Part shown: piece after piece, positions 12,091-23,054 of the stretch | Layout: every line of letters starts with the position of its first letter | Numbering within the stretch: the first letter of the stretch is position 1 | NCBI GenBank assembly: GCA_047633055.1 | Contig: JBLIEI010000014.1 | Location: forward strand, 10,833-74,832 | Length of the DNA stretch: 64,000 nt | Origin: Halieaceae bacterium | GTDB lineage: Bacteria; Pseudomonadota; Gammaproteobacteria; Pseudomonadales; Halieaceae | Direction of reading: 5' to 3' | Notes under the pieces: generated by a model | Told to the model about the DNA's origin: nothing | The model's input: the letters and a program-made list of their open reading frames with translations, nothing else | The model's database searches: none | Position numbers and translations under genes: made by a program

Positions 12091-12166
12091 TCCGCTTTAG
12101 CTCAGTTGGTAGAGCAATTGACTGTTAATCAATGGGTCGCTGGTTCGAGCCCAGCAAGCGGAGCCA
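12091..12166 (+). tRNA. tRNA-Asn (anticodon GTT)
   Basis: The acceptor stem TCCGCTT/AAGCGGA is followed by G-CCA. The D-arm is AGCTCAGTTGGTAGAGC, the anticodon loop is CTGTTAA and the T-arm is GGTTCGAGCCC. Total length is 76 nt. Confidence 0.93.
12121..12166 (+). repeat. attL: 46-bp direct repeat formed by the 3' part of tRNA-Asn
   Basis: ACTGTTAATCAATGGGTCGCTGGTTCGAGCCCAGCAAGCGGAGCCA is identical to 22988-23033. Confidence 0.9.
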
Positions 12167-12173
12167 GATACAA

Positions 12174-12206: not shown

Positions 12207-12360
12207 ATGCCAAAAATAACGCAATAAATCCAAAAATAGTCCTATATTAGGACACTAGCAATTGTTTTTAGTTGCGGCTATACTTTGTGGATCGCGTACC
12301 GGAACGCAACAAGATGCAAACCGACGCAATGGGGTGAAAAGTCCAAGGCAGTTCGAAACT

Positions 12361-12384
12361 GCCGCAACTATTGCCGCAACTATT
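12361..12384 (+). repeat. tandem 12-mer GCCGCAACTATT x2 (candidate integrase arm-type site, left end)
   Basis: GCCGCAACTATTGCCGCAACTATT recurs at 22918-22941 as GCCGCAACTATTGCCGCACCTATT. Both copies are followed by an ACCCAATGA(T/C) motif. Confidence 0.5.
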
Positions 12385-12439: not shown

Positions 12440-13753
12440 ATGGCAATTCCAGAGGAAAGGACGTTCTCGAACGATACGCGGCTCCAATCGATCAAATGGC
12501 CTGGCGGATGCCGAGAGCCAAGACTCGATTTTGTCGACACACAAGAGGCTGGCCTCCGGTTCCGGATCACCCCCAAGGGAAAGCGCACTTTCGTCTATCG
12601 CTACTTTCCGAACGGCAGCAAGACCGGCAAACAGGTAACCTTGGGCACCTACCCCGCATACACCCTCAAGGAGGCGCGGGAACAGGTTCGGCAATTACGG
12701 AAGTCACGGGAAAGCGGAATCGACCCAAAGGTCGCCCTTGCCGACCAAAAACGGGCAGCGGCCGAAGCTGCTACCCCTGCCGAGGGTCGCTCGGCGCACT
12801 ACACTGTGAACGCCCTTTGCAGGGAGTGGCTCGACGATGTGCAAAATACAAAATCGAATAACACCTATAAGCAATATAAACACGTGGTTGAAAACTGGAT
12901 AAAGCCCGAGCTCGGCACTATCGCAGTTGCAAACGTTGGGCGGGACGATATCGCCAATATGCGACAGGCAATCCTAAGCAAGCGACATCGAAAAACAGGA
13001 AAGCCTCTAAACACACTCGCAAACAGATTGCAGGCGATCACGCGGGCCATGTTCAATTGGTGTATCGAAAACCGGAGCCAGAAAAGTGGGATCGAACTCA
13101 ATCCGGTTAATGGCCGCCAGAAATGGGGGGGCAAAGAAAATCCGCTTCGGCTGACCCTCCCCCCGCTAACGATCGACGCGGTTGCAAAAATCATCTACTA
13201 CGCCCGAGAGTCAAAGGCCAGCGACGCTATCCGGCTTTGTATCGAACTATGCTGGCGGATTGGACTTAGGCCGACTGAGGCCCGCACCGCCAAAAAGGGC
13301 GACTTTGATTTAAAGGCAAATATCTGGACGATACCCAAAACAAAAAACGGTATTCCCCTTCGTGTGATGTTGCCCAGCCAGGTCGCAAAGATAATCAAGA
13401 ACTATCTCGACACGCACAAATTCAATAAGTCCGACTCCATTTTCCGGAAATCCAGGGGGACAGGCCCTATGGACGCAAAACGAATCCAAAAAGTAATGAC
13501 CGCGCTTCACGACAACGAGCTATATGGCGGGAAAATGCACATCTCGCGACACGCCTTTATGTCATGGGCGAAAGCGAACAAGATCGGGCTCGACGTCCGC
13601 AACCGACTTACAAACCACGTCGACCGAAGCATCGATGCCACATACTCCCATGCAGACCTCGACGACGAGGCTCGCGAAGCATGGCATCGATATAGCAATG
13701 AGATCGAGCGCGAGATAAAGAAACTGCAAAAGAATTCGCCTAAAAAGCGATAA
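12440..13753 (+). CDS. tyrosine-type site-specific integrase (P4/CP4-57-like, DUF4102-type arm-binding N-terminus)
   Basis: The N-terminus reads GLRFRITPKGKRTFVYRYF..VTLGTYPAYTLKEAREQ. The C-terminal catalytic region carries SRHAF and ATYSH (the Tyr nucleophile context). The gene is adjacent to attL. Confidence 0.88.
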   Translation: MAIPEERTFSNDTRLQSIKWPGGCREPRLDFVDTQEAGLRFRITPKGKRTFVYRYFPNGSKTGKQVTLGTYPAYTLKEAREQVRQLRKSRESGIDPKVALADQKRAAAEAATPAEGRSAHYTVNALCREWLDDVQNTKSNNTYKQYKHVVENWIKPELGTIAVANVGRDDIANMRQAILSKRHRKTGKPLNTLANRLQAITRAMFNWCIENRSQKSGIELNPVNGRQKWGGKENPLRLTLPPLTIDAVAKIIYYARESKASDAIRLCIELCWRIGLRPTEARTAKKGDFDLKANIWTIPKTKNGIPLRVMLPSQVAKIIKNYLDTHKFNKSDSIFRKSRGTGPMDAKRIQKVMTALHDNELYGGKMHISRHAFMSWAKANKIGLDVRNRLTNHVDRSIDATYSHADLDDEAREAWHRYSNEIEREIKKLQKNSPKKR

Positions 13754-15170: not shown

Positions 15171-15416
15171 ATGGGCGCCACCACCCAAACAACGCTCCAG
15201 CAACTCGCCACGGAGTGCCACGTTTCGCTCCGAAAACTCCAGCTTGATGTAAAAAGTGGGATCCTAGAGATAACCCGCGTCGGGCGGACGCCGTTCGTTA
15301 CAGAAGAGCAAAAAGAAATCTACTTTTTACGCAACCGCGTTGCGAATAGCCCACGAACGTATGCCGAGGAACGAGAGCTCGAGCGCCTAGGTTTCCGAGC
15401 TAAACCGAATGAATAA
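15171..15416 (+). CDS. excisionase-family HTH DNA-binding protein (81 aa), island
   Basis: TLQQLATECHVSLRKLQLDVKSGILEITRVGRTPFV fits the excisionase-type HTH pattern. The start was trimmed to the ATG at 15171. The gene overlaps the next gene by 8 nt. Confidence 0.55.
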   Translation: MGATTQTTLQQLATECHVSLRKLQLDVKSGILEITRVGRTPFVTEEQKEIYFLRNRVANSPRTYAEERELERLGFRAKPNE

Positions 15417-16578
15417 GTGCGCAAGCGCGTCGCCAAAGTTCCGGCGCCGACTCGAGCTACTGTTACCGAAAAGCGACTTGCTGACTAGCCTCGACTGGCC
15501 AGACGAACAGGCCTATCAATTTCTTGTCGATCTCGACCAGGATATTGATCTGGGCGATGGCGGCCAATACTCCGTAGTTGCAAAAAAGAATGCTGCCATG
15601 CGAATGCTGAATGTCGGCGTCGACCATTCAGCCGTTGCCGTCTGGTATGTGTTAGCCGACTACGCATACAAAGGCAGCAAAGGCATTTGTTTCCCAAGCC
15701 TAACAACTATAGCCGGTCGTGTGAGCCTCTCCAGGCGCGCTGTTATCCGATGGATCAATTACCTAGTCGAGCTAGGGGCCGTTGAGAGACTGACCCGAGG
15801 CAACGGCAGAAACGAAGCTACCCGATATTTCATCATTACGACCTGGAACCCGTCGTTCGGCTTACACACTAGCGGCGCAAAGGGTGACGGCAACGGCACT
15901 ATTCCTACGAAATCTAATAGTGACAGTAGCGACACCGTTCCGGCCGAAATAGTGACACCTGTGACATTAAATAGTGACACCTATGACACGCAAATAGTGA
16001 CGCAGGTGTCACACGAATCTATCTATGAAACCGGCATTAAGCCGGTTGAAATAGATAGACAGGCTAACGCGCAAAAATCTTCGGGCGCTGAGGCGCCCTG
16101 CGATTTGGTCGCTCCGCCTGGAGAGCTGCGATTGTCTGAGGTATTTCGCAGGGGGTGGGGCGGGCTTAAACCTCGCGAGGCAAAACACACACAGCGGCAA
16201 CTAGCAAAATCCATGGCTGAGGGCGACACCCCCGACGAAATAGCCGACGGCCTGTTACGACACCTGGCGTGGGCTATGGCGTGGGAAAAGCCCCCCTGGC
16301 AACTCGCAGCGCTTTTACGCACATCGAAGTATCACGACGACTGGGACACTCGGCCTCCGGCAAAAAAGGATAAACCCAAAGCAAAGGCCGCCACCAGGTC
16401 AACGCCAGCACAACTCGCCCGGAGCATCTCAGACGATGATGCGGCATCGCTCGGCCCCACCCAGGCTCGAAAAATCTTTGACGAGCACCTCAAAGGCGAT
16501 TGCAAACTTTGCTCCAGCGGGGGTGCGACTCCGCCATGCGATAGCGGGGCGCGGCTAATACGGAAAATAACAGGCTAA
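15409..16578 (+). CDS. replication-initiator-like HTH protein (389 aa), island
   Basis: FPSLTTIAGRVSLSRRAVIRWINYLVELGAVERL is typical of HTH_36/Rep-O-like winged-helix initiators. The gene contains an iteron array (15916-16012). Confidence 0.55.
   Translation: MNKCASASPKFRRRLELLLPKSDLLTSLDWPDEQAYQFLVDLDQDIDLGDGGQYSVVAKKNAAMRMLNVGVDHSAVAVWYVLADYAYKGSKGICFPSLTTIAGRVSLSRRAVIRWINYLVELGAVERLTRGNGRNEATRYFIITTWNPSFGLHTSGAKGDGNGTIPTKSNSDSSDTVPAEIVTPVTLNSDTYDTQIVTQVSHESIYETGIKPVEIDRQANAQKSSGAEAPCDLVAPPGELRLSEVFRRGWGGLKPREAKHTQRQLAKSMAEGDTPDEIADGLLRHLAWAMAWEKPPWQLAALLRTSKYHDDWDTRPPAKKDKPKAKAATRSTPAQLARSISDDDAASLGPTQARKIFDEHLKGDCKLCSSGGATPPCDSGARLIRKITG
15916..16012 (+). repeat. iteron array (candidate island origin of replication) inside the Rep-like gene
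   Basis: Four copies of (A)AATAGTGAC start at about 15916, 15948, 15970 and 15993. The last three are spaced 22-23 bp apart. The last copy is part of the inverted repeat GTGAC-N6-GTCAC. Confidence 0.6.
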
Positions 16579-16607: not shown

Positions 16608-16928
16608 ATGAAACAAAAACACAAAATCGAAAATCAAAACGCGCTCGACGACCTGGCAAAGACAATCGGAAAGGTGGCCACAGAAAGTCGACGCCGGAAA
16701 CTGTGGCGACTGCATTCTGAGTTGAGCCGAACGTCTCCAGGTATACAGTCTGCACGCGCGAAAAACGTGGTGGGGTTTGTTGGCGTAAAACAGACCAAGA
16801 ACGGCAGGTATAGCGCAATGGCAGCCATTCGAGGGAAGCGAATTCACATAGGCACATTCAACAGACCGTATGAGGCCTACGCAGCGCGAGCGATTTTTCT
16901 CGCAAAGCATCGTGACGACGAAAAGTGA
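16608..16928 (+). CDS. AP2-like DNA-binding domain protein (106 aa), island
   Basis: VGFVGVKQTKNGRYSAMAAIRGKRIHIGTFNRPYEAYAARAIF matches the AP2/ERF-type fold pattern seen in phage and HNH-associated proteins. No HNH motif is present. Confidence 0.5.
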   Translation: MKQKHKIENQNALDDLAKTIGKVATESRRRKLWRLHSELSRTSPGIQSARAKNVVGFVGVKQTKNGRYSAMAAIRGKRIHIGTFNRPYEAYAARAIFLAKHRDDEK

Positions 16929-17043: not shown

Positions 17044-17331
17044 GTGTTTATGACTGACCCAGAAAACAAAGATCAAGTCGTGAGAATTGACGGCAGCGGC
17101 ACAACCTCCGCTAAAGTTCGTGAAGCGGCAAGCCTTTATCTACAGCGTGCCGGAGGCGGCCCAGAGGTGAGCTTCGCCAAGTCCCTAAGGTTCTATGCCG
17201 AGATTGGGGCTGAATTCGAAAGGCTTCGCATCCTTGGCGGAAACTTCCCGTTCTCGACCGAGCAGGCATTGAAGCTTCACGCGCAAAAAATGGCAGGGGG
17301 TCGTGAGTCGACCCACCTGGAGATCAAATAA
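17044..17331 (+). CDS. hypothetical protein (95 aa) translationally coupled to the capsid gene, island
   Basis: A good RBS (AAAGAGG) precedes it and its stop overlaps the next start (TAATG at 17329-17333). The function is unrecognised. Confidence 0.55.
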   Translation: MFMTDPENKDQVVRIDGSGTTSAKVREAASLYLQRAGGGPEVSFAKSLRFYAEIGAEFERLRILGGNFPFSTEQALKLHAQKMAGGRESTHLEIK

Positions 17332-19280
17332 TGGGGGTGAAATCCCCCACCACGCCCGACTGGCTCGAACTGTCGAACTTGTGTCGATCTGATCGAGTCG
17401 AGGGTAAAACCTGGTTCGATATGAAAGCGCAAGGGGAAACCCTCGAACTTTCGATATACGACGAAATCGGAATGTGGGGCGTTAATGGCTCCGACTTTAA
17501 ACGCGCCCTCGACGGGTTCGATAATGTTTCCGAGATTGTTTTAAATATGCACTCGCCAGGCGGATCGGTTTTCGACGGCCTGGCAATTTACAATCAACTG
17601 AAAAACCATAAAGCGAAAGTTACCGTCAAAATCGACGGCCTCGCGGCCTCAATCGCGAGCGTTATCGCTATGGCGGGGGATACGATAATTATTCCCGAGA
17701 ACGCTTTTATTATGATTCATAAACCGCGAATGCCCGCAAATGGTATCGCGGACGAATTGCGCGAAAGCGCCGATCTTTTAGATAAGGTCGAAACGACGTT
17801 GATTGCGGCCTACCGCGTCAAAACGGGTTTAACCGATTCCGATATTTCTGAAATGCTCGAGGCCGAAACATGGCTAACTGGCATCGAAGCAGTCGAGATG
17901 GGATTTGCCGACGAAATAGCCGAGCCAATCCAGGCAGCGGCTACTTTAAACAATGGCTTAATCGAGGAGTACTCTCAAATGCCAAGCAAAGCTAAAACAC
18001 TAATCAGCGCCACCCCCGCCGATAAATTCAAGGCTGCCGAACTGGCTCGCCGTACTGAGGTAAAAGCGGTATTCGCAGATTTCCCCCAGCACGACGACGT
18101 TCGCAATGGTTGCCTCGACGATATGGAGTGCTCCGCCGAGACTGCCCGCGCTAAACTGCTGGCAACTATGGGCGCCGCTGCTACTCCGAGCGCGGCAGCC
18201 ATCCACGTCGGCAACGGCTCCATAGTTCGCGACGTGCTCCAGGATGCGCTACAGGCGCGCACTGGAGCCGCCACGCTGCAAGATAAAGGCAACCCCTACC
18301 AGGCATCGAGTTTGCTTGATCTGGCGCGCGCATCGCTGATACAGAACGGTACGGGCGTTGCAACACTTGCGCCTATGCAGGTCGTAGCGGCCGCCTTTAC
18401 ACACAGCTCCGGCGACTTTGGCTCGGTTCTTTCCAATGTGGCCGAGAAATCGCTACTGAATGGCTGGAACTCCGCGCCAGAAACATATCCCCTGTGGACG
18501 CGTAAAGGCACGTTGTCATCGTTTCGGCCCGCATTGCGCGCCGGTATTGGTGGCTACCCAGTGTTGCCGTCTGTTGCAGAGGGCGCCGAGTATACACACG
18601 CCACCATGAACGACACTGGGGAAGTAATCGCCCTGGCGAAACACGGTTCCATGTTCTCAATCACCCGCGAGGCGATCATTAACGACGACCTGGACGCGTT
18701 CTACCGCATACCGGCCGGACAGGGTCGAGCGGCCATGCGGACGATCGGAAGCCTGGTGTATGCATGCCTAACTGGCAATACGGTGATGAGCGACGGCAAG
18801 GGTATATTCCATGCCGATCACGGCGGCAACACAATCGTAGACGCCCTCGACATAGGCGGCATCGCAAACATGCGTAGAATTATGCGTATGCAGACTGATA
18901 ACGCCGGACAATCTCTGAACATTGCCCCTGGTTATTTGCTCGTTCCGGCGGCGCTGGAATCGCAAGCGCAACAGGTTATCGCCTCGACGGCCGTACCTGG
19001 CGCCGACAGTAATTCCGGCATTAAGAATCCGGTCAACTCCGCAGCCGAGATCGTTGTCGAGAGTCGCCTCGATGCGGCCTCTGCTGACAGTTTTTACATG
19101 GTTGCGGGCGCTGGCGACACGATCGAGGTTGCATTCCTCGACGGCATGGACACTCCCTACCTGGAACAGCAGGCCGGTTGGAGCGTTGACGGCGTTAGCT
19201 TCAAGGTACGGATCGAAGCTGGCGTTGCGCCGATAGACTACCGTGGATTTGTTCGCGGAACTGGCGGTTTGCCCGTATAG
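17331..19280 (+). CDS. prohead protease / major capsid protein fusion (ClpP-type S14/S49 protease N-terminus, HK97-fold capsid C-terminus)
   Basis: The N-terminus reads MHSPGGSVFDGLAIYNQL..IDGLAASIASVIAMAGD..FIMIHKP, with ClpP-like Ser and His contexts. The C-terminal ~320 aa (..YPLWTRKG..GAEYTHATMND..FSITREAIINDD..) resemble phage major capsid proteins. Confidence 0.75.
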   Translation: MGVKSPTTPDWLELSNLCRSDRVEGKTWFDMKAQGETLELSIYDEIGMWGVNGSDFKRALDGFDNVSEIVLNMHSPGGSVFDGLAIYNQLKNHKAKVTVKIDGLAASIASVIAMAGDTIIIPENAFIMIHKPRMPANGIADELRESADLLDKVETTLIAAYRVKTGLTDSDISEMLEAETWLTGIEAVEMGFADEIAEPIQAAATLNNGLIEEYSQMPSKAKTLISATPADKFKAAELARRTEVKAVFADFPQHDDVRNGCLDDMECSAETARAKLLATMGAAATPSAAAIHVGNGSIVRDVLQDALQARTGAATLQDKGNPYQASSLLDLARASLIQNGTGVATLAPMQVVAAAFTHSSGDFGSVLSNVAEKSLLNGWNSAPETYPLWTRKGTLSSFRPALRAGIGGYPVLPSVAEGAEYTHATMNDTGEVIALAKHGSMFSITREAIINDDLDAFYRIPAGQGRAAMRTIGSLVYACLTGNTVMSDGKGIFHADHGGNTIVDALDIGGIANMRRIMRMQTDNAGQSLNIAPGYLLVPAALESQAQQVIASTAVPGADSNSGIKNPVNSAAEIVVESRLDAASADSFYMVAGAGDTIEVAFLDGMDTPYLEQQAGWSVDGVSFKVRIEAGVAPIDYRGFVRGTGGLPV

Positions 19281-19503: not shown

Positions 19504-20055
19504 ATGGAGGTTGTTGTTTTGTCGAGCACAGATATAGACCCGCTCTGGTTAAACAAACGTGACGCCGCAGCGTCGGTGGGGATTTCAACACAAGCCTTTA
19601 GTAAATGGGGTGTAAAGCCCGTTCAGCGTTCAGGCCGCGAGGTGTTTTTCACTGTTCGCGATATCGTCGACAATCGGGTTGAGAGAGCACTTAAAGGAGC
19701 AAACGGCGAAACTCCCGGGGAACTCGAGAATTTGGGGCGCAAGAAGTATCTCGAGGACTACCGTCTCGCGAAAGCCCGTCGAATAGCTCAAGAGCAAAAA
19801 AATGATCTCGCTGCCGGAACAATGATTCCGACTGATTTCGCAACGTTTGCACTCTCGAAGATTGCCGCTCGAATCGCCTCGATCCTGGACACGCTCCCGC
19901 TAACTATGCGGCGGGCTCACCCGGACCTCGAGTCTCGACACATTGATTCCTTTACTCGCGAAGTTGCGAAGGCGCGAAACGTGGCGGCGGAGGTCGACGA
20001 AATCCTACCTGAGTTGGTCGAGGAATATGCCGCCCTTACAAACGAGTCAAGTTAA
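19504..20055 (+). CDS. terminase small subunit, lambda Nu1-like
   Basis: TFALSKIAARIASILDTLPLTMRRAHPDLESRHIDSFTREVAKARNVAAEVDEILPELVEEYA aligns closely with lambda Nu1 (TFVLSRIAGEIASILDGLPLSVQRRFPELENRHVDFLKRDIIKAMNKAAALDELIPGLLSEYI). An N-terminal HTH (AASVGISTQAFSKWG) is present. Confidence 0.85.
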   Translation: MEVVVLSSTDIDPLWLNKRDAAASVGISTQAFSKWGVKPVQRSGREVFFTVRDIVDNRVERALKGANGETPGELENLGRKKYLEDYRLAKARRIAQEQKNDLAAGTMIPTDFATFALSKIAARIASILDTLPLTMRRAHPDLESRHIDSFTREVAKARNVAAEVDEILPELVEEYAALTNESS

Positions 20056-20320
20056 GAATTTAATAAAAGCAGTTTGCCTCGGCCTGTCTTCACTATTCCG
20101 GCCGGAGCCATTGAGAGCTGCTAAGCGCGCCGCTTTTGACTTCACCGCCGCGTCAATCGCGCTGGGAGATGCTCCCCGACTGTTGGGCGTATTTGTACGG
20201 TCGATTTGCCCCCCCCCCCAGCCCTTGGCCCAGCAAGCGGTTCACTGGGGCGCACGAGACCGTCGGAACGGGCTCAGCCTTCCGTGCCCCCGTTTCCGAC
20301 CTGCGCCTCAGCTAGAGAAA

Positions 20321-22339
20321 TCACCTCAGCAATTTATTAACTCGATCGATTAGGCCCGACCACTGGGCAGCTTCATTTTCTTGAAGGTCGGCGGCAGTGT
20401 GGTCTCTAGTCCATCGGACATATGCTTTCGCCAATTTATACTTCGAAAACCCCTCAACGTCAGAGGTAAAAATATCTACTATCGGTCTTCCCGGTTGACT
20501 TAGAGCCGCGCTAGAAGTATCGACGCCAAACTCACTTGCAACAATGCTGATCAGCGTTCCCCTAAGCAGGTCTTCGATTTCGGCTTTTTCCACTCCCGAG
20601 CAATAGTCTTTAGTTCTAAGAATATTTTTGTTACCTAGAGTGTGGACCAGATTTTCTTGTTGTGCTGCTTGATCGCCAGCGGCGTCAGAGTCTAATAGGG
20701 CAGCGACCTTTAATCTGTGTGCGTGCAATATAGTTGCGTAGTAAACAAGCTTTCCTGCGGAGTTTGCAAAAACCAGAGAAATTTTATTGTTTAAATCAAT
20801 AATCTCACTCTCCCGAAGCATTGCGGACGTAGATTCCAGGTACCAATAGTCGGTGATGCCCTCCATGACTAGATTTCTACTCTGCGAAAAAAGGCTGCTA
20901 GCAAGGTCGTAGCCAAGGGCTTCTTGCAGGGGCAGCAATCCAGCGGGATCACCAGACGAAATGGCTAGGTGAACTTTCGTGCCTTCGGCTCTCGTCTTCA
21001 TTTCAACCACTCTGACGATATCTAATTCGTCGGGCCCCACTAGAAACGGAGAATGTGTTGAAAAAAGAGTTTGGTTCGCTGCCGCAAGCCGCGATAGGGT
21101 GTTTCTAAATTCACATTGCTTGAGCCCATGTAGGCTCATTCCGGGCTCGTCCAACAATAGAATTGCGTTCTCGTGTTTGTCTATCGCCTCCGCGAAAAAA
21201 ACAACGAAGAATGAAACAAGCCATTGAAAGCCCTCGGATCGTTGATCCAATTCGATATCCACTCCAAGATCATCTTCCACCACAACCTTCAAGTATTGCC
21301 CATCGACCAAAACTTTCAGTTTGTCCGCCTCAGGCCGATTGGAATCAGGCAGCCAAACAGATAGTATTTCCCTTGTTAGCCGGACGCTCGCAGCGTTGAG
21401 TTGGTAACTTCTTATATCGAGATTGTCTCTATAGGTTTTAAGGGCCTCAGCGTCATTTATGCCCGGTTCGGGGGTTTTTCCTAGAGCGGAAAGCTCTCTC
21501 GGCGTAAACCCAAGTAGCTTCAAGAGGCAGATGTTTCCGTAATCAAAGAACTCATCGTCAAGTATCTGATCTTCGGTTCTTCTCGCAAGATGCTCCAAAT
21601 GAATTAAAGGTTTTACGCGAAAGTAATTATTGAAAAGAATAAAGACTGGGACCCGTTCACCGAGCGTTTTCAGCGCGGATTCCCACAAGCCGTTGAACGC
21701 AATAGCTTCAATCAATGCGTCGTATCTGGCCTCTTCTTTATCATTATCCTCATCGACAAACTCGTAGCTTTCCTCCAGCCATTTATTAAGATTTTTTGAC
21801 GTATCCCCCGAAACCCATGTGTAGTCGGCCCAATCGCTCGTTAAAGCCTTGAGCGAATCGCTAGGTTTTATTGGATCAGTATCCGATTCCTCGGGTGAAT
21901 ACTGTTTGTCCATGTGAGCGGCAATCCTGACTAAGTCCTTTTTCAAGTCTTTAAACCAAATTTTTTCCTGGCCACCCACCAGCGTATGCGTCCCTCGATT
22001 TGAATAATACCGACTAAGCTTGTATTCACTATCATGAAAAGCTTCCGGTATGAGGGCCTTGTCGGTATCTTCCAGTCTAAAGGTCCCCTCAACGACAACA
22101 GTTTCGTTCGGCTCCACTGCACCGGTCGTAACGTCATTATATTTCGACCGCGGGTAGTCTCTAAGGATGTCAAACCCCGGCGTATCCTCTGGCCGATTTA
22201 GCTGTTGCAAGGCCCTAAATAAAACTGTTTTTCCAGCTTCATTGGGGCCGACTAAAATTGTTTTTAAGTCTTCAATTTCGAATTCCGTAGAATCTACAAT
22301 GCTTCGATAGCTCTGAACTCTTGCTTTTACTAATTTCAT
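20321..22339 (-). CDS. OLD-family nuclease-like protein: ABC/AAA_15-type ATPase fused to a C-terminal TOPRIM domain (672 aa)
   Basis: Walker A is GPNEAGKT (aa 31-38), the signature-like motif is SEGFQWLV, Walker B is ILLLDEPGMSLH and the H-loop is FSTHSPF. The TOPRIM Glu (NLVMEGITDYWYL) and DxD (LLDSDAAGD) are present. Sampled 60-nt lines are ~35-47% GC against ~57-60% in neighbouring genes. Confidence 0.75.
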   Translation of the reverse strand: MKLVKARVQSYRSIVDSTEFEIEDLKTILVGPNEAGKTVLFRALQQLNRPEDTPGFDILRDYPRSKYNDVTTGAVEPNETVVVEGTFRLEDTDKALIPEAFHDSEYKLSRYYSNRGTHTLVGGQEKIWFKDLKKDLVRIAAHMDKQYSPEESDTDPIKPSDSLKALTSDWADYTWVSGDTSKNLNKWLEESYEFVDEDNDKEEARYDALIEAIAFNGLWESALKTLGERVPVFILFNNYFRVKPLIHLEHLARRTEDQILDDEFFDYGNICLLKLLGFTPRELSALGKTPEPGINDAEALKTYRDNLDIRSYQLNAASVRLTREILSVWLPDSNRPEADKLKVLVDGQYLKVVVEDDLGVDIELDQRSEGFQWLVSFFVVFFAEAIDKHENAILLLDEPGMSLHGLKQCEFRNTLSRLAAANQTLFSTHSPFLVGPDELDIVRVVEMKTRAEGTKVHLAISSGDPAGLLPLQEALGYDLASSLFSQSRNLVMEGITDYWYLESTSAMLRESEIIDLNNKISLVFANSAGKLVYYATILHAHRLKVAALLDSDAAGDQAAQQENLVHTLGNKNILRTKDYCSGVEKAEIEDLLRGTLISIVASEFGVDTSSAALSQPGRPIVDIFTSDVEGFSKYKLAKAYVRWTRDHTAADLQENEAAQWSGLIDRVNKLLR

Positions 22340-22513: not shown

Positions 22514-22855
22514 CTACTTAACGCTATCGACCAGCGCCACGGCAAGCGCCCCAACTCCAACAACGAATCCCAAGAGTACAAGGGCTGAAGCGACCCGAAG
22601 CACCGTGTTAGTGGTAGTACCGATCTTTTCACCGTAGCGTTCAAGATTCGCCAACAGTATGGTAATTGCAACAATCGAAGCCAGAATGCACACACCAAGC
22701 CCAGCGGCTACGAACGGAATTAACTGGGTGCCTAACTGCCCGGCGCTGAGGTCACTGAGAAGGGCTGCACAAACAGCAAGCCCCGCAGTAGAGACCGTGG
22801 CAAGGTGCTTGTAGAGGTCGATTGCTATCTTGCGCTTTTCAACACCGATGTTCAT
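22514..22855 (-). CDS. small integral membrane protein (about 113 aa, 3 predicted TM helices)
   Basis: Three hydrophobic stretches are present: LATVSTAGLAVCAALL, LIPFVAAGLGVCILASIVAITILL and VLRVASALVLLGFVVGVGALAVALV. The ORF-track start at 22873 is a TTG, so the first ATG at 22855 is used here. The start is uncertain. Confidence 0.5.
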   Translation of the reverse strand: MNIGVEKRKIAIDLYKHLATVSTAGLAVCAALLSDLSAGQLGTQLIPFVAAGLGVCILASIVAITILLANLERYGEKIGTTTNTVLRVASALVLLGFVVGVGALAVALVDSVK

Positions 22856-22917
22856 GCTGGAAGGATAACCCAACTAGCCAATACACTGAAACGTTGCGGT
22901 AAACCTACAGAAAGAAT

Positions 22918-22941
22918 GCCGCAACTATTGCCGCACCTATT
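22918..22941 (+). repeat. tandem 12-mer GCCGCAACTATT/GCCGCACCTATT (candidate integrase arm-type site, right end)
   Basis: A near-identical copy of 12361-12384, in the same orientation, lying 47 bp inside attR. Confidence 0.5.
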
Positions 22942-22987
22942 ATAGGAATATTACCCAATGATCACTATTTTAGAGACTTTGCGAATA

Positions 22988-23033
22988 ACTGTTAATCAAT
23001 GGGTCGCTGGTTCGAGCCCAGCAAGCGGAGCCA
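22988..23033 (+). repeat. attR: 46-bp direct repeat (duplicated 3' part of tRNA-Asn)
   Basis: Identical to 12121-12166. The sequence diverges immediately on both sides. Confidence 0.9.
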
Positions 23034-23054
23034 TATTTAGTATTGAATATCAAA

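Follow-up and report, generated by a model that had tools for sequence, protein, structure and literature searches.

A 64,000-nucleotide (nt) stretch of DNA from a Halieaceae bacterium (assembly GCA_047633055.1, contig JBLIEI010000014.1, positions 10,833 to 74,832), referred to here as the window, raises the question of what role is played by a gene for an ABC ATPase joined to a TOPRIM nuclease that stands at one end of a small island integrated in a tRNA gene (Table 1). From the letters alone, the sequence-only reading had proposed that this gene is cargo of a phage satellite, low in G+C content (GC), and a candidate anti-phage defence. The results described here support, with a probability of about 0.7, an explanation in which the gene encodes a single-gene OLD nuclease that was acquired horizontally as satellite cargo and acts against phage. 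The OLD family, its single-gene class and the carriage of defence genes by satellites are already known. What is new is modest and consists of a long-form, widely transferred clade of OLD proteins and of the occurrence of an OLD gene on a marine island that resembles phage-inducible chromosomal islands (PICIs) and has a minimal capsid module. A Halieaceae bacterium metagenome-assembled genome (MAG) on record encodes an identical protein, on a 75-kb contig, and automated annotation already names several homologues 'OLD family endonuclease'.

Identification as a probable single-gene OLD nuclease

The protein of 672 amino acids (aa) contains two of the parts that define the OLD family, an N-terminal ABC ATPase with all of its motifs and, at the C terminus, a TOPRIM domain with a conserved glutamate and a DxD motif. 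The Pfam models AAA_15 (6e-17) and AAA_21 (2e-12) both match above their cut-offs, and the best PADLOC model is Old (6.7e-22), with the matches to AriA, GajA, PtuA and others confined to the generic ATPase core. When the C-terminal 207 aa (residues 466-672) were searched alone, Old was the sole significant PADLOC model (2.6e-5), Pfam OLD-like_TOPRIM matched as well, and PDC-M55B and one GajA model followed at 0.014. Deeper comparisons made use of alignment A3, which comprises 77 sequences, includes two more distant clades and reaches relatives at 25-30% identity, and column identity within the clade was taken from alignment A1. The A3 profile, searched against all Protein Data Bank (PDB) sequences, retrieved TsOLD of Thermus scotoductus (6P74) as the top match (3.7e-13), aligned from Walker B through the linker and the EG..D motif to DxD, and in the same search PtuA, AriA and GajA aligned to ATPase segments only. 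A comparison with P2 Old, which the sequence-only reading had suggested, gave a strong match in hhalign (94.6% probability, E 7e-8) and paired E493, D497, D550 and D552 with E398, E402, D453 and D455 of P2 Old, four residues that lie in the catalytic pocket of the latter in a cryo-electron microscopy preprint (bioRxiv 10.64898/2026.07.10.737580). The match to YbjD was weaker (61%, E 8e-5). A Foldseek search of the AlphaFold2 (AF2) model against the PDB also placed 6P74 at the top (1.6e-13) and gave a full-length match to GajA at 7e-10.

OLD proteins of Class 1 are set apart by a D-loop histidine instead of aspartate (DEPExxLH) and by a TOPRIM domain that lacks an extra helical insert (bioRxiv 10.64898/2026.08.18.745644; PMC10568477), and by the synteny definition they are stand-alone proteins (PMC12392090, PMC10568477). 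Both traits are present here, as H404 in the D-loop (LLLDEPGMSLH) is invariant and the AF2 model contains no helical insert of ~50 aa between the TOPRIM strands. Judged from its sequence, the protein is most likely a single-gene OLD nuclease, Class 1 by the synteny definition. A length of 500-600 aa was applied as a Class 1 filter in the phylogeny of Vibrio cholerae OLD (Vc OLD) (PMC12392090); this is an operational and not a mechanistic criterion. The sequence-only reading had left three options, a Class-1 OLD-like single-gene system, a fused PARIS-like protein or something new, of which the single-gene Class 1 assignment is now the most likely and the fused PARIS protein is disfavoured.

The surroundings of the gene agree with stand-alone action. 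No helicase, reverse transcriptase (RT) or DUF4435 gene was found among the open reading frames (ORFs) of the island with Pfam, PHROG and PADLOC, and an Rfam search of 11.5-23.5 kb returned the tRNA as its sole match and no non-coding RNA (ncRNA). The earlier statements that this is neither canonical Gabija nor two-gene PARIS, which had been made from the lack of an adjacent helicase gene and of a separate DUF4435 gene, agree with these results. Gabija (Class 2) was rejected as there is no GajB-like helicase in the island and RecD2-type helicases occur in only 2 of 135 downstream neighbours of the homologues; one locus, from Halomonas, includes a RecD-type helicase gene that is separated from the OLD gene by GmrSD fragments and encoded on the opposite strand. 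A retron-associated OLD system (Class 3) was likewise rejected, with no RVT domain in the island ORFs and no ncRNA found by Rfam. In an all-against-all clustering of the ORFs located up to 5 kb from the OLD gene at 86 loci (80 genome loci plus plasmid and other loci), no neighbour was conserved except for a Bacteroidota-specific downstream ORF (10/86). The Pfam content of the two nearest ORFs on each side was similarly diverse; the 133 upstream neighbours contained any one family at most 5 times, and the 135 downstream neighbours at most twice. Many loci do have a same-strand ORF upstream of the OLD gene, and these ORFs are unrelated in sequence and size.

Comparison with characterised systems places the protein closest to the single-gene OLDs. 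P2 Old, the archetype of Class 1, is an abortive-infection tRNase that is activated by aberrant or replicating DNA (PMC12445682). The window protein resembles it in being a single polypeptide that has its ABC ATPase at the N terminus, a helical insert (here a predicted one) and its TOPRIM domain at the C terminus, in its D-loop histidine (DEPxxxLH in both), in an alignment that covers Walker B to DxD, and in being the non-essential cargo of a mobile viral element. The two differ in length (586 aa against 672 aa, with ~100 extra residues in the ATPase inserts here), in sequence (~30% identity over 164 aligned columns, the N- and C-terminal parts being left unaligned by hhalign) and in carrier, which is a helper-type phage in the case of P2 Old and a satellite here. 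TsOLD, a Class 1 protein and a non-specific DNA nuclease in vitro, is the best profile and structural match in the PDB and has the same domain order, but it shares ~13% identity, is 528 aa long and gives low global TM-scores of 0.29-0.36, which are compatible with different domain orientations and larger inserts in the predicted model. Vc OLD and YbjD/OldB of Escherichia coli, both chromosomal and of Class 1, are also stand-alone OLD genes of sporadic distribution, although both fall within 500-600 aa and YbjD occupies a fixed chromosomal locus. GajA (Class 2), the retron OLD (Class 3) and AriA/AriB (Class 4) share with the protein an AAA_15/21-type ABC ATPase and the logic of a TOPRIM-type effector, but the window holds no GajB helicase, RT, ncRNA or DUF4435 partner, and in contrast to Class 2 no helical insert is predicted in the TOPRIM domain by AF2.

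Domain organisation and conserved sites

The ORF and all of the motifs quoted by the sequence-only reading, including Walker B LLLDEPG at residues 394-400, were confirmed at the places it had given. Invariant residues in A3 comprise G31, N33, E34, G36, K37, S368, G370, D397, E398 and H404 of the ATPase up to the D-loop, followed by T428, H429, S430, P431, E493, G494, D497, D550, E589, D590 and K633, and position 552 is D or E throughout. In the TOPRIM domain, the candidate active-site residues by sequence are E493 and D497 (EGxTD, in VMEGITD), D550-x-D552 (LLDSDAAGD) and E589-D590. The AF2 model built from A3 has a predicted local distance difference test (pLDDT) score of 84.8 and consists of an ABC core, two helical inserts, an alternating beta/alpha TOPRIM domain (488-575) and a C-terminal helical region; it replaced an earlier model from 48 close homologues (pLDDT 69.5) in which the TOPRIM domain was mis-modelled.

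The protein exceeds P2 Old (586 aa) by ~100 aa and TsOLD (528 aa) by ~140 aa, and the additional residues precede Walker B, which is at residue 397 here, at roughly 290-300 in P2 Old and at about 275 in TsOLD. This extra length is due to additional helical inserts in the ATPase, of which two are predicted by AF2 at ~126-230 and 248-338. The insertion of ~330 aa between Walker A and the signature that had been described earlier proved to be simply the spacing of these motifs, since the span consists mostly of the normal ABC lobe-I sheet and the helical insert of all OLD/Rad50-type ATPases, and the true excess over P2 Old and TsOLD is ~100 aa. The 308-residue span from Walker A to the signature, queried alone, gave no match to PADLOC and Pfam models.

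The segments of the protein differ widely in conservation. Insert 1 (126-230) is the most variable, since its column identity (57% in A1, 35% in A3) is below that of every other segment, and by analogy with related ATPases it is a candidate trigger-sensing region, as it occupies the same position as IS1 of AriA, which has been proposed to bind triggers. Insert 2 is, in the model, a candidate dimerisation or coiled-coil region, and its position matches that of the dimerisation insert of TsOLD and P2 Old (PMC10568477; bioRxiv 10.64898/2026.07.10.737580). The most conserved segment is the linker between ATPase and TOPRIM domain, residues 461-486 (SSGDPAGLLPLQEALGYDLASSLFSQ), with a column identity of 95% in A1 and 77% in A3. 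The linker is modelled poorly by AF2 despite this conservation (pLDDT <50 for 460-484), and such a combination may mark an interface or a regulatory element.

Probable acquisition as cargo at the attR end of the island

The OLD gene has a GC of 46.0% and a third-position GC (GC3) of 46%, compared with 53.3% in the rest of the island, 55.6% in the capsid gene and 53-54% in the flanks. It is the lowest of 620 overlapping 2-kb sliding windows (mean 53.7%, standard deviation 2.1%), and the compositional anomaly is therefore real, at ~8 points. The low GC reported by the sequence-only reading is thereby upheld, although its size had been overstated at ~15-20 points. The island's core genes are all encoded on the plus strand. 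Its only minus-strand genes, the OLD gene, which is convergent with terS, and a small membrane ORF, fill the space between terS and attR, in agreement with the antisense, att-proximal placement noted earlier. In PICIs, the position after terS is a known site of accessory genes (PMC10085698). The lowest-GC position, the antisense orientation beside attR and the presence of homologues in variable mobile contexts bear out the earlier view of the gene as foreign cargo. Taken jointly, the identity of the protein as an OLD nuclease and the status of its gene as horizontally acquired accessory cargo, occupying, at the attR end, the slot that follows terS, are very probable.

The OLD genes of close homologues are found in many lineages and surroundings. 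The 120 best homologues share 66-71% identity with the window protein and are 667-704 aa long, most of them 667-683 aa. A scan of one genome per species in 185,579 species gave 280 matching stretches, of which 80 loci were kept; their proteins are 58-68% identical to the window protein and come from Gamma-, Alpha- and Betaproteobacteria, deltaproteobacterial lineages, Campylobacterota, Bacteroidota, Actinomycetota, Chloroflexota, Planctomycetota, Verrucomicrobiota, Acidobacteriota, Bacillota and Vampirovibrio. An exhaustive search of representative sequences gave 564 clusters (50% identity) at E<=1e-30 and 2355 at E<=1e-10, the full-length members being mostly 600-700 aa. With a filter of 500-600 aa, published surveys of Class 1 would have left this clade out.

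Recurring families among the neighbours include Eco57I/MmeI and other methylases, ResIII, XhoI, DUF6079, GmrSD, Shedu SduA_C, Mrr and PIN_8, together with integrases, resolvases and transposases of mobile elements, and plasmid copies of the clade adjoin Abi, VapBC, TrlF and S-4TM genes. Given these variable mobile and defence contexts, the homologues do not represent housekeeping genes at a conserved position. The sequence-only reading had held that closest homologues of a YbjD-like housekeeping kind in conserved chromosomal contexts would speak against its proposal; the contexts found are variable and include plasmids, and YbjD is the more distant match (61%).

Within the OLD family, which is a major defence family, no class is less well understood than the single-gene OLDs; phenotypes are available for P2 Old, Vc OLD and YbjD only, and these three are unlike one another in their trigger and in their target, which is tRNA or DNA. 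The gene described here points to a large, very mobile and length-shifted clade, in which one tested member would reveal whether the variable insert is a sensor and what the substrate of the branch is. A more far-reaching interpretation, which is tentative and the less probable side of the question, is that the proteins of ~670 aa form a distinct long-form branch of single-gene OLDs and that the carrier island represents, jointly with this, an undescribed type of satellite. The part concerning the branch may be argued from the additional hypervariable insert as a possible sensor, the ultra-conserved linker and the cross-phylum identity of 58-71%. The trigger or substrate of the clade may differ from those of P2 Old, Vc OLD or Gabija, and it is conceivable, if doubtful, that the clade is a mechanistically distinct variant.

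A sister clade at ~29% identity, also of 667 aa, is common in Klebsiella, Enterobacter, Escherichia, Serratia and Vibrio. Its members on F-type plasmids are located in the leading region, between psiB/ssb/parB and traM, with flanking IS66 fragments, and a 160-aa ORF is conserved that ends 10 nt upstream of the OLD gene (L005:5505-5990 in Klebsiella and L160:8508-8990 in E. coli). A literature search with the accession of a plasmid-borne member of the sister clade returned nothing. In a separate observation, two Psychrobacter records and a 'Streptosporangium sp. NPDC' assembly (L024, L025 and L026) contain an identical arrangement of OLD gene and resolvase, all at 63.393% identity to the query, a pattern that suggests contamination or a very recent transfer in this assembly series.

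Proposed mechanism and alternative explanations

Three single-gene OLDs, P2 Old, Vc OLD and YbjD, have anti-phage phenotypes (PMC12445682, PMC12392090, PMC13261556), the latter two as evidence that defence without partners is possible, and by analogy with them an anti-phage role of the window protein is likely. The protein would form a dimer or tetramer via its helical insert and would be held in an auto-inhibited state, by analogy with P2 Old, Vc OLD, TsOLD, GajA and PARIS. Its ATPase module, possibly by means of the hypervariable insert at 126-230, would respond to a cue of infection, for example phage DNA in an aberrant or replicating state or a protein of the phage, and ATP binding or hydrolysis would free a two-metal TOPRIM site formed by E493, D550 and D552, with D497, E589 and D590. 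The nuclease could then attack DNA (of the phage or in replication), with nicking or 5'-3' degradation by Vc OLD and TsOLD as the precedent, or host tRNA, with P2 Old as the precedent. The outcome would be a block of phage replication or abortive infection, which would shield the host and the resident satellite from non-helper or competing phages.

Other roles for the same domains have to be weighed against this defence function. The gene might serve as a selfish module for stabilisation or inter-element competition, with a toxin-like addiction or anti-plasmid function. This would fit the plasmid occurrence of the clade, the VapBC, transposase and resolvase genes nearby, the position of the sister clade in the leading region of F-type plasmids and a cross-phylum conservation that is very high and unusual for a fast-evolving phage sensor. 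It is nevertheless unlikely, as no antitoxin-like partner is conserved in the 86 loci, the neighbours are mostly classical anti-phage genes and the characterised single-gene OLDs act against phages. Satellites encode nucleases that attack the helper, such as NixI of the phage-inducible chromosomal island-like element PLE, and the position of the gene directly after the packaging module with TerS would suit a comparable nuclease of the satellite itself, which damages helper DNA or processes island DNA in helper interference or packaging bias. The opposite strand to all core genes and the foreign GC make this quite improbable, as does the presence of the gene, at 58-71% identity, on plasmids and in 80 genome loci that lack the packaging and replication genes of the island.

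A fused, or merged, PARIS AriA-AriB protein, in which the ATPase senses anti-restriction proteins such as Ocr and frees a DUF4435-type TOPRIM tRNase, would account for the PADLOC AriA matches to the ATPase part (1e-17 to 4e-11); merged ariAB genes exist, and PARIS is found on satellites (PMC11464382). A tRNase outcome is possible in any case, given that P2 Old cleaves tRNA. The AriA matches are, however, limited to the generic AAA_15/AAA_21 core. For the C-terminal 207 aa, the matching models are Old and OLD-like_TOPRIM, with none of AriB or DUF4435 even at E<=10, and in the PDB profile search AriA aligned only to residues 385-429 and AriB was missing, whereas TsOLD aligned through the TOPRIM domain. 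PARIS, including merged AriAB, was rejected as a system type on the result for residues 466-672, and this explanation is considered highly unlikely. The least probable explanation is that of a housekeeping ATPase-nuclease for DNA repair or chromosome maintenance, similar to YbjD, RecF, Rad50 or Cran1, that merely adjoins the island. The ABC ATPase fold is common to Rad50, SMC and RecF, one source labels a homologue 'RecF', and the archaeal OLD protein Cran1 is a cell-cycle protein, but the att-bounded island includes the gene, P2 Old and TsOLD are both matched better than YbjD, and the distribution is sporadic (280 stretches among the genomes of 185,579 species) with variable contexts.

Several points weigh against the preferred reading of the gene as an anti-phage OLD nuclease carried by a satellite. 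The Pfam score for OLD-like_TOPRIM (PF20469) is just below its gathering cut-off (E 1.9e-4, 22.3 bits against 23.2), the length of 672 aa (667-677 aa in the clade) falls outside the 500-600 aa filter for Class 1, and K400 of P2 Old is replaced here by a hydrophobic residue (I/V/L), so that details of the active site differ. The family is not always defensive, an exception being the cell-cycle role of Cran1 (PMC12796447). Sequenced phages contain hardly any members of the clade, with two weak partial matches in INPHARED, and structural matches in BFVD are to giant-virus and Rad50-like proteins. Packaging and replication genes of the island were found at none of the 80 genome loci with the OLD protein, where a single distant integrase match was the only trace, and the link between gene and satellite therefore rests on one case. 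Keyword searches of the literature on OLD and satellite defence gave no report of a phenotype for the protein or the clade.

The carrier island and its neighbouring genes

The island is 10.9 kb in length, is bounded by 56-nt repeats and is inserted in tRNA-Asn (Table 1). It has the features of a phage satellite in general, namely a small att-flanked island with an integrase, a replicon of its own, a partial packaging and capsid module and no tail or lysis genes, as judged from its sequence. No tail, lysis, portal, large terminase (TerL) or head-tail adaptor gene was found among the island genes, and no TerL, portal or adaptor ORF fits in the 10.9 kb. With no tail, lysis, portal or TerL gene, the element is satellite-like and similar to PICIs or capsid-forming PICIs (cfPICIs). 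The earlier assumption of a P2/P4-type element was not borne out, as the protease-capsid fusion and the Nu1-like TerS are PICI/cfPICI-like.

In common with PICIs and cfPICIs, the island begins with the integrase, uses a tRNA insertion site, and carries a replication initiator with iterons, an HNH gene, protease and capsid functions, TerS and an accessory gene after terS. It differs from cfPICIs in having no TerL, portal or head-tail adaptor genes, and from classical PICIs in encoding a capsid, and its host is a marine Halieaceae MAG. The SatelliteFinder rule for cfPICIs requires >=9 of 11 core components, including TerL and a head-tail adaptor or connector, and no tail or holin (PMC10085698); judged against this definition by gene content, the island lies outside the rule, since only int, rep, HNH, the fused protease/capsid and TerS were recognised. 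The island may represent an undescribed minimal type of capsid-encoding satellite in marine Gammaproteobacteria, consisting of int, rep, HNH, the fusion of protease and major capsid protein, and TerS, without TerL or portal, a proposal that was assessed jointly with that of the long-form OLD branch and is accordingly speculative. The pattern of defence cargo after terS is extended by this island from enterobacterial PICIs and P4 elements to marine Halieaceae, and beyond that the finding is of an expected kind.

Four direct repeats of 20 nt (AAATAGTGACAC.. type) with spacings of 32, 22 and 23 nt are present at 15915-16011, inside the initiator gene, and are probably the iteron origin of the island. 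Just within both island ends, at 12360-12384 and 22905-22941, are TGCCGCAACTATT repeats, for which a role as arm-type integrase binding sites is plausible from their sequence and position.

Table 1. Positions in the window of the OLD gene, its domains and motifs, and the features of the carrier island
Feature	Position	Strand	Description	Basis
OLD-family ABC ATPase and TOPRIM nuclease gene	20321-22339	-	Intact, 672 aa, ATG start	ORF and translation
Walker A (P-loop) GPNEAGKT	22226-22249	-	Residues 31-38, K37	Coordinates checked
Helical insert 1 in ATPase	21650-21964	-	Residues 126-230; candidate trigger-sensing region	AF2 helices 130-228
Helical insert 2 in ATPase	21326-21598	-	Residues 248-338, with a predicted 33-residue helix at 297-329; candidate dimerisation or coiled-coil region	AF2 secondary structure
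ABC signature SEGFQ, then Walker B and D-loop LLLDEPGMSLH	21128-21238	-	Residues 368-372 and 394-404 (D397, E398, H404)	
H-loop THSP	21047-21058	-	Residues 428-431	A3 and coordinate check
ATPase-TOPRIM linker	20882-20959	-	Residues 461-486	Column identity, AF2
TOPRIM nuclease domain	20540-20881	-	Residues 487-600	AF2 beta-alpha-beta-alpha-beta, A3, profile alignments
C-terminal helical region	20324-20539	-	Residues 601-672, invariant K633	AF2, A3
tRNA-Asn	12091-12166	+		ARAGORN, Rfam
attL	12114-12169	+	Within the 3' end of tRNA-Asn	Direct repeat
Tyrosine integrase of the island	12440-13753	+		Pfam Phage_integrase and Arm-DNA-bind_3
Replication initiator	15409-16578	+	HTH_36, lambda-O-like	Pfam, PHROG
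HNH endonuclease	16608-16928	+	Packaging-associated	phrog_99 HNH
Prohead protease-major capsid fusion	17331-19280	+		Pfam CLP_protease and Phage_capsid_4; phrog_133 1.5e-230
Nu1-like small terminase (TerS)	19504-20055	+	Last core gene; cargo slot begins after it	Pfam Phage_Nu1, phrog_57
136-aa ORF	19943-20353	+	Overlaps the 3' ends of terS and the OLD gene; treated as spurious	No family match
Small membrane ORF	22514-22873	-	113-119 aa, ~3 predicted transmembrane helices; 174 nt upstream of the OLD gene, same strand	
attR	22981-23036	+	Repeat of the tRNA-Asn 3' end (56 nt, 93% identity); marks where the island ends on the right	Direct repeat

The small membrane ORF next to the OLD gene has a GC of 53.5%, which is host-like and unlike the 46% of the OLD gene. 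It has no match to PADLOC or defence families, no homologue beside the OLD gene at the 86 loci and no similarity to the downstream ORF of the Bacteroidota. Because of its host-like composition, the lack of a defence-family match and the lack of co-occurrence with OLD elsewhere, it was not counted as part of the OLD module and probably lies outside of it. The 136-aa ORF was rejected as a real gene, having no family match.

At ten loci, mostly from Bacteroidota (L027, L028, L035-L037, L041-L043, L047 and L069; for example L042:12024-12530), the ORF downstream of the OLD gene encodes a protein of 159-171 aa with an N-terminal transmembrane helix. It is on the same strand, starts 3-56 nt past the OLD stop codon and is absent from the window, and it may be a lineage-specific second component.

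Relatives of the island

The closest relative of the island in the metagenomic data (L120) shares its att sequence, its integrase (93% identity) and its capsid gene (82%) and differs in the replication module. Its contig stops ~900 nt past the capsid gene, before the cargo slot, and conservation of the OLD gene with the island could for this reason not be demonstrated there. In more distant relatives (L087-L132, from IMG/VR and metagenomes), the slot after an ORF of ~200 aa, the size of TerS, is variable and often holds reverse-strand ORFs, among which were one AbiJ/Abi_C match and matches to PDC-S31 models. The evidence for a cargo hotspot from these relatives is weak, because several of the slot ORFs belong to host or prophage flanks. 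IMG/VR also contains contigs of 8-12 kb that encode an integrase together with this capsid fusion (46-48% identity), and some are arranged in tandem. Tandem arrays are seen in L089, L101, L102 and L118, where two or three copies of the capsid gene occur within 18 kb.

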